Of a DNA stretch of 7,816 nucleotides, positions 6,001 through 7,816 are shown in pieces (positions within the stretch are counted from its first letter, which is position 1; each line of letters begins with the position of its first letter). The stretch is from a virus (Duplodnaviria > Heunggongvirae > Uroviricota > Caudoviricetes), in the IMG/VR virus record IMGVR_UViG_2671180770_000017, positions 1 to 7,816 of that record, one strand, 5' to 3'. Made by a program: the position numbers.

Positions 6001-7816
6001 CACTGTGTTACCTGGCTAATCAGAATTTATAGCCGACACCCACGATGAAACCGTCAGTGCGCCAGTCGCCACTGCCGGAACCTTCATAAGCAAGGTCAAT
6101 AACCACCGTCTCTACGGGACTGAACTGAATCCCGGCATTCCAGGCCGGCGACAGATGACGCGCAGTATGACCATCACTGGCGGTGGTGGTCTCCTTCACA
6201 TACCCCGGTTTCACTTCATCACGCCGGTAATCCTGAACACTGTCAGACCAGCGGGTGTACGCCATCCCGGCCATGCCATAGAGACTGACCCGCTCACTGA
6301 GCTGCCAGACAGGGCCGGCCATCAGACTGACATAACGACCGCGCAGGCTTTCATAATGGAAGGTATTTTCACCCGTCTTCATCGTGTCACTTTTCTTCAC
6401 CGATGCATAACTCAGCGCGACAATGCCGCCCAGGTGATCCGTGAACTCATAACGGTATTTCACATTAATCCCTTTTAAATCACCTGCACGCGCACCGGTA
6501 CCGCCGCCGTGTAATGCACGACCTTATCCATCAGTACCTGGTGATCGAGTTTTTCGCCCACGGCTTCTTCCCAGGTCTCGCCCAGCGTGGTGTTCACAAA
6601 GGTTTTCAGGCCGTTGGGATCTTTCAGTGCATCCAGCCAGTCATAGACTATCTGTACCCAGGTGGTAAACGGACTGTACGCCGTCCAGATATGGAACGTG
6701 ATGGAGCGCGGCGGCGGAATTTCATCACCCCGGGCGCTGAAAAACGTCAGACCGTCACGGGTCCACATGCCCGTGTTTTCACAGATCCACCGCCCGTTGC
6801 TCTGGTCCAGTTCAGACTGATGGATCACGCAGCCATGATGTTCACAGAGGTAGAAAACACTTTCGGGGCTGTCCTTCTCCCATTTAAGCCCAAAAGGCGT
6901 GGACTCATCGCCAAATTTCAGATACTGCGCCTCCCCACAGTGCGGGCAGGGCACATAAAAACGCATAAAATGCGCCGACTCGTTAGCGGCTTTTTCGATC
7001 TGGCAGGTGCCTTTGATTTTAGGCGTCGAGCCGCGAATGGATTTTGGCCACACCGACCCCTCAATACGCTTATCCCCCAGCAGGGTTGGCGAGCCCTCTT
7101 TTTCGACATCCGGCTCGAACGAGGAAAGTTAGTCATAGCAGACCACGTCCACGGATTTTTCACGGTAGTTTTTGGCGGCAGCGCCGCCCAGGCACCAGAA
7201 ACCGACGCCCGATGAAAAGCGTTTCAGCGTGAGAGTATTGTCACGATGTTTACGACCCAGCCATGGGGAAAGGTCTTTCAGGCATGGCACGTTCCGAATC
7301 GTCGCCTCCACGTGAGACTTCATAAAATCTTCAGCGGCAGAATCCGTGGGCTGAAAAAGCAGACTGTTTCGGGATTTATGCTCAATAAAATACCCGACCA
7401 CCCCCAGCAACATCTTTGTATAGCCAACACGAGCAGATTTAATCAGGTTAACCGTGCGAACCTGGTCGTTACCCATACAGTTCATAATGGCGATCTGGAA
7501 TGGCAGCGTTTTCCATTCTCCCTCACCATATGAAGATTCTTTAGGCAGATAATAATTTTGATCAGCCCATTCAACTGCCGTCATTGGTACAACCCTGACC
7601 AGAGGCTGCAGCGCAACCGAAACGGCAGCCATCATATTATTCAGTTGTTGCTCTGATATATTCATCGAGTAAATCCGGTAATTTATCCCCTGCCCGCGCA
7701 CACTGATTTGCCCCCTTAGCAATAAGGGTTTTCAGATGGTCAAGATGGCGCGGTGTTAAATCAGGAAACTGTCGCTGCATGGATAAAGGGATGGAATCAA
7801 GCGTACTGGATAACGC

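Follow-up and report, generated by a model that had tools for sequence, protein, structure and literature searches.

The window analysed here, a stretch of 7,816 nucleotides, is the reverse complement of the complete contig CYAV01000108.1 (7,816 bp; draft assembly GCA_001277695.1; locus L018), to which it was assigned by exact-protein lookup. The two sequences differ at a single base, position 7131 of the window, which is A in the window and N in the public record. All genes of interest are carried on the minus strand and, read in that direction, follow the order: the 3′ end of the terminase small-subunit gene (Nu1), a remnant of the terminase large-subunit gene, a remnant of lom, a tail-fibre gene, a gene for a fibre C-terminal domain, nleB2, a fragment of nleC, a frameshifted nleH, nleF, a partial copy of tRNA-Ser and the end of an IS5-family element. 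This is the gene order of lambda (Nu1-A ... lom-fibre), with effector genes, whose domains were confirmed, lying beyond the fibre genes. The window represents the distal portion of a lambda-like prophage with type III effector genes, located at tRNA-Ser beside yodB/zinT. The Nu1 portion (7637–7816, minus strand; Pfam Phage_Nu1; called at positions 1–180 of L018) is colinear with the annotated terminase small subunit of 2015C-3163 (NZ_CP027219.1; locus L071) and of locus L002. The contig stops within this gene, and a cos site and integrase, repressor, replication and lysis modules, as far as the element has them, would lie outside the window.

The cargo at the other end of the window was described in the original prediction as intact, which holds for the reading frames of the fibre, NleB2 and NleF but not for nleH and nleC. 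The tail-fibre gene (4642–5955, minus strand) encodes a complete protein of 437 aa with collagen-like repeats (Pfam phage_tail_N, Collagen and Phage_fiber_C), which has the same length as the protein of B19374 (NZ_CP142915.1; locus L001) and differs from it by six substitutions. It is followed by the gene for an 89-aa fibre C-terminal domain (4371–4640, minus strand; Phage_fiber_C), equal in length to the protein of B19374. The intact nleB2 gene (3214–4194, minus strand; 326 aa; Pfam SseK_NleB, E = 3e-181) encodes a protein identical to WP_000950813.1 of B19374, and the product of the intact nleF gene (1036–1605, minus strand; 189 aa; Pfam NleF_casp_inhib) is likewise identical to its B19374 equivalent. 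The nleC fragment (2890–3180, minus strand) consists of 96 codons that match positions 1–64 of 251 of Peptidase_M85, and the gene is annotated as missing its C-terminus in both B19374 and 2015C-3163. In the nleH pseudogene (1661–2581, minus strand), three-frame translation revealed at least three frame segments, the NleH-like sequence switching frame twice, and nleH is annotated as frameshifted in the same two relatives. Because these relatives have complete morphogenesis modules, the nleH and nleC defects predate the deletion described below. The nleH copy of the window has one further indel in comparison with the B19374 pseudogene, and relatives differ in their frameshift state. A short ORF with a CxxCxxCC motif at positions 532–705 corresponds to a frameshifted YkgJ-family cysteine-cluster pseudogene of related prophages, in which it is annotated between nleF and the attachment site.

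The distal attachment-site repeat is a partial tRNA-Ser copy at positions 250–320 (minus strand), which matches annotated tRNA-Ser genes at 100% and comprises the 3′ portion of the tRNA, including the T arm. In BLAST comparisons, this match is annotated in genomes that have one copy and unannotated where there are two. ARAGORN called no tRNA in the window, since the tRNA-Ser copy is incomplete, and Rfam gave only sub-threshold partial matches at the attachment-site remnant. In the related prophages the site is flanked by yodB/zinT, while here the flank is cut by the end of an IS5-family insertion sequence (1–98, no strand assigned), inside which the contig terminates. This segment has 100% matches at many unrelated sites, lying under annotated IS5-family transposase genes, and homology to all related prophage loci ceases at positions 95–99. 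The IS5-family element is inserted between the tRNA-Ser remnant and the position that yodB occupies in relatives; an insertion at this site was found in no complete genome.

The terminase large-subunit ORF occupies positions 6475–7665 (minus strand). It retains codons 1–390 of 642, followed by six codons of lom DNA (VRVQVI) and a stop; since the lom frame differs from the terminase frame, no fusion protein results. From position 7816 to 6497 (minus strand), 1318 of 1320 nucleotides are identical to the intact prophages of E. coli O103:H2 12009 and 2015C-3163, and, with the N at 7131 set aside, the remnant differs from the intact genes by one real base in 1320. The relationship to lambda is evident from the segment 6475–7128 (minus strand), which shares 68% identity with residues 180–396 of gpA (E = 2e-113). 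The GpA_ATPase domain (PF05876) is complete, residues 48–293 covering profile positions 4–247 of 247 (E = 1.8e-55). The GpA_nuclease domain (PF20454), in contrast, is represented only by positions 3–80 of 294, compared with 3–286 in an intact relative, and the remnant lacks both a complete endonuclease domain and the portal-binding tail. Judged from its sequence, the ORF is a gene remnant and not a functional member of the gpA family. The peptide HYTAAVPVRV had been read in the original prediction as gpA-like up to its end; the terminase block to which it belongs was borne out, but its final VRV is out-of-frame lom DNA, and the intact terminase reads VPARVVYL at this point.

The window also displays an in-frame TAA within the terminase gene, at positions 7129–7131 (minus strand), and this codon was considered as a second inactivating mutation and rejected as an artefact. 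The public contig has N at 7131, L002 has G, and the intact relatives carry GAA (Glu179). A lookup of the corresponding 178-aa 'N-terminal fragment' returned only contig-end partial genes of other assemblies, none with the stop. The contigs of ten other assemblies end at 7131 or 1 bp from it, which is 1–2 bp before the site at which terminase alleles diverge. For this reason, the N probably marks a seam left by scaffolding or gap closing at a repeat boundary, and the leftmost 685 bp of the contig (in the minus-strand reading) may be a collapsed repeat. The apparent stop codon, which derives from an N in the source record, should be read with this warning in mind.

The lom remnant (6020–6502, minus strand) was recognised from Pfam Ail_Lom, from alignment with lambda Lom, and from comparison with the intact Lom of B19374 and L002. 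It comprises codons 48–207, and its DNA runs from lom nucleotide 141 onward. In translation it shares 68% identity with residues 55–206 of lambda Lom (E = 7e-80). The match to Ail_Lom (PF06316) spans positions 46–199 of 199, which falls short of the full barrel domain, and the deleted codons 1–47 include the signal peptide with MRHLYATILLFTTLLAGIAFPAQA, leaving no export signal. The first in-frame start is a GTG at 6463, from which an ORF of 147 aa can be read.

The terminase and lom blocks abut within 6460–6520, as originally predicted, and both were confirmed by the lambda gpA and Lom alignments and by Pfam. The exact position of the breakpoint had to be revised. It had been placed at 6484–6487, which is 10–19 bp away from the limits found in three-way, base-level alignments, where terminase DNA homology stops at 6497 and lom homology begins at 6503. 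The terminase parent reads ...ACGGCGGCGGTACCTGCCCGG at the breakpoint, the lom parent ...TTGTCCGGTACCGGTGCGCG, and the window ...ACGGCGGCGGTACCGGTGCGCG. Microhomology, which the original prediction had proposed to look for by aligning the region with an intact lambdoid prophage, is present as the heptamer CGGTACC (6497–6503, minus strand). Because the two blocks overlap there, the crossover lies somewhere within these 7 bp and cannot be placed more finely, so the precision of about 3 bp claimed earlier was wrong. The two parental copies of CGGTACC lie in terminase large-subunit codons 388–390 and lom nucleotides 141–147 (18869–18875 and 37170–37176 in L071), and a single copy remains in the window. 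There are no inserted or filler bases at the junction, and no N. CGGTACC occurs six times in the morphogenesis region (20.4 kb) of the prophage of 2015C-3163, and the deletion joins the first copy to the last. When random junctions were simulated in this region, overlaps of 7 bp or more arose at a frequency of 6.6e-4 (400,000 trials), so the repeat is longer than expected by chance. This frequency fits a genuine microhomology-mediated deletion.

The extent of the missing interval is apparent from the intact relatives. In 2015C-3163 both flanks of the junction are found, in the same orientation, in one prophage adjoining yodB/zinT. They are separated by 18,301 bp and share 99.85% (terminase side) and 98.6% (cargo side) identity with the window. 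In B19374 the flanks are 18,357 bp apart and the corresponding identities are 97.8% and 99.4%; the window from 6503 to 99 (minus strand) is 99.4% identical to an intact prophage. The two relatives thus resemble the window in gene order, cargo, attachment-site flank and DNA sequence around the junction (98.6–99.85% identity), but they have retained the 18.3 kb that span terminase codon 391 to lom nucleotide 140 and hold about 20 head and tail genes together with sodC and J. Lambda itself has the same gene order, with gpA and Lom segments 68% identical to the remnants, but its two corresponding points are separated by about 17.2 kb with a full head and tail module between them. This agrees with the distance of roughly 17 kb originally quoted for lambda, the equivalent figure in the closest intact relatives being 18.30–18.36 kb.

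Comparison with the intact relatives also defines the gene content of the deletion. The head genes lost are W (head-tail joining), portal, protease, D (decoration), E (major capsid), FI and FII, and on the tail side Z, U, V, G, T, H, M, L, K and I are missing, as are J and the sodC moron. The deletion further takes in the 3′ 40% of the terminase gene and the first 140 nucleotides of lom. The original prediction was therefore correct, for this locus, in regarding every head and tail morphogenesis gene as gone: the absent 18.3 kb hold the portal, protease, capsid, tail tube, tape measure and J genes, without which particles cannot form. The further claim that the prophage cannot make particles holds for the element alone. 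It does not hold in general, since packaging in trans, by the proteins of co-resident prophages, still takes place in defective lambdoid prophages of O157 Sakai with defects in head formation or packaging, terminase included (PMC2669165).

We consider it likely that these features originated in one internal deletion of about 18.3 kb between CGGTACC copies within a single lambda-like effector prophage, and that the event was recent and strain-specific. Such a deletion would have joined terminase codons 388–390 to lom nucleotides 141–147, leaving one copy of the repeat. A repeat at both parental sites, of which one copy is retained without filler, is the standard signature of RecA-independent illegitimate recombination, and from what is established about this process the deletion may have arisen by replication slippage (copy choice) or by microhomology-mediated end joining. 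Sister drafts of the same prophage family contain several other deletions with microhomologies of 1–10 bp. The consequence is the loss of all head and tail genes, of the terminase nuclease domain, and of the lom signal peptide and first strand, and the element alone is unable to build or fill capsids. The genes past lom are untouched; they lie downstream of the late operon and have a transcription context of their own.

A counterpoint to a single deletion is that the junction rests on one short-read draft contig with a single N 630 bp away. If this contig were chimeric, the prophage of the strain would in reality be intact or differently deleted. Such an assembly or library artefact would be in keeping with the nature of the sequence, since the window is a whole 7.8-kb short-read draft contig with repeats at both ends (Nu1 and IS5), its single N falls where terminase alleles diverge and many other assemblies break, and the junction had no independent occurrence in any collection searched. 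However, 7 bp of shared sequence is not enough to produce a de Bruijn or overlap-based join. Such an overlap is far below any assembler k-mer or merging overlap, which makes a repeat-induced misjoin improbable. The junction contains neither N nor a foreign base, and its overlap is significantly longer than chance, as would be expected of biological microhomology and not of a random chimeric ligation. On balance, we regard an artefact as very unlikely.

The origin in a single internal deletion also has to be set against the possibility that the terminase and lom came from two co-resident prophages, with the intervening chromosome deleted or inverted. In a contig of this length, it cannot be seen whether both sides derive from one prophage of the strain. 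The closest relatives of the two sides differ, the terminase being closest to an O103-type allele and the cargo to B19374 and to a family of degraded prophages described below, and lambdoid prophages are numerous in these strains, with up to 17 terminase matches per genome. Yet 2015C-3163 combines the O103-type terminase with this cargo in one prophage, and the surviving head genes of the degraded family are O103-like too (98.5% versus 95%). A mosaic single prophage is sufficient to explain the differing closest relatives, so a large chromosomal rearrangement is not needed, and we judge recombination between prophages to be highly improbable.

Another counterpoint to the single internal deletion is the position of its lom endpoint, which lies within 4–7 bp of that of a different, J-to-lom deletion, a proximity not expected from a single random deletion. 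The 147-aa lom remnant ORF is present, unchanged, in at least nine other assemblies, where it is joined to J at about codon 213. The J-to-lom junction was mapped at L013 9964–9967 and also in L014–L017 and L019–L022 (drafts GCA_017118535.1, GCA_032490175.1, GCA_007647865.1 and others); the assemblies with this junction further include GCA_902828845.1, GCA_005395885.1 and GCA_948144095.1. Its overlap, TACC, corresponds to lom nucleotides 144–147 and falls inside the 7-bp crossover interval of the window. These degraded sisters resemble the window prophage in their chromosomal site (L013), the identical 147-aa lom ORF, the nearly shared lom endpoint and decay by microhomology. They differ from it in that lom is joined to J, that sodC and parts of E, FI, FII and Z are kept, and that a deletion runs from the fibre gene to nleB2. 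The family (L013, L015, L017, L019 and L022) exhibits lineage-specific stepwise decay, all examined members sharing the J-to-lom junction. The head-region deletion differs among them, extending from the terminase gene to E, from Nu1 to upstream of E, or from E/FI to sodC. The fibre-to-nleB2 junction is common to all members whose contigs reach it, and creates a fibre::NleB fusion ORF of 640 aa.

The existence of this family allows for a two-step history, in which a J-to-lom ancestor lost, in a second event, everything between terminase codon 390 and the TACC of the old junction, the J stub and sodC included. The product expected from these two steps is identical to the window sequence, and the J-to-lom junction (L001 20004–20007) lies inside the crossover interval of the window (L001 20001–20007). 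The fibre region of the window is also closest to the J-to-lom family, with 3 mismatches in 1514 compared with 16 for B19374, and the family occupies the same chromosomal site as the window prophage, as shown for L013. Against this, the second deletion would have had to end exactly at the old junction, so a coincidence is still required. It would have used a microhomology of only 4 bp, where intact lom offers 7 bp, and the window is free of the fibre-to-nleB2 deletion that is present in every J-to-lom member examined. We therefore regard the two-step history as unlikely, and a single deletion as the better account of the junction.

The near coincidence of endpoints could alternatively reflect a property of the lom sequence itself. 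The palindrome CCGGTACCGG (lom nucleotides 139–148) might be a preferred point of breakage or template switching, at which independent deletions strip the morphogenesis genes and spare the fibre and effector cargo. The candidate events are the terminase-to-lom deletion described here, the J-to-lom deletion of at least nine assemblies, and a third junction in the complete genome of the chicken isolate Z1323CEC0012, in which J is joined to lom 3 bp further along in the same register (L023 20205–20211). This third junction belongs to another prophage, which lies at potB and carries other cargo. The palindrome does not stand out, because 30 perfect 10-bp palindromes occur in the 20.4-kb region, and in all 46 of the 46 IMG/VR loci that hold the lom segment, intact lom sequence is found upstream of it. 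A hotspot at this site is speculative, and we consider it doubtful.

Among 5,426 complete E. coli genomes, about 25 (O103:H2, O45:H2, O121 and others) match the terminase side at 99.8% as far as position 6497, and 84 match the cargo side at 98.9–99.4% from position 6503; the junction is absent from the entire set. An exact 41-mer spanning it had no match in species-representative genomes, and a junction 30-mer had none in metagenome contigs or IMG/VR. At the protein level, exact lookup of the 192-aa ORF that follows the apparent stop yielded no independent copy of the junction. In a homology search for proteins ending in VPVRVQVI, the closest matches examined (P0001 and P0002) continue as intact terminase, and two others that were fetched (P0004 and P0005) stop before the junction point. 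Only one sequence thus carries the terminase-to-lom deletion. Because the junction was found nowhere else and the terminase remnant, the N aside, has acquired one difference, the event looks recent, and the remnants, as far as their sequences indicate, bear no further decay.

These observations bear on the view of the element as a domesticated effector carrier, which had formed part of the original prediction. A conserved degraded structure shared by independent strains was not found in the 5,426 E. coli genomes, species representatives, metagenomes or IMG/VR. The domestication reading is unsupported, because the structure is private to one draft assembly, the event looks recent (one real difference in 1320 for the terminase remnant) and the cargo had partly decayed beforehand. 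The locus looks like a recent accident, and nothing shows that it is retained under selection.

Decay of prophages by internal deletion is routine in attaching and effacing E. coli, and the window is a case of such ordinary decay, a newly mapped example of a defective lambdoid effector prophage. It is comparable to the Sp prophages of O157 Sakai, in which effector genes also lie beyond the tail-fibre genes and morphogenesis or packaging genes are deleted or disrupted (Asadulghani et al. 2009, PMC2669165). The Sakai elements are different prophages at different sites, and Sp4 is the only lambdoid Sp without an intact terminase (PMC2669165), whereas in the window prophage the deletion cuts into the terminase gene and removes the morphogenesis genes as a single block. 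The result is of little importance in itself, as the instance is private to one draft genome. Its value lies in a cleanly mapped microhomology deletion that disables a prophage while nleB2 and nleF stay in place. If more cases appear, the shared lom endpoint would point to a local hotspot that shapes the immobilisation of effector prophages.
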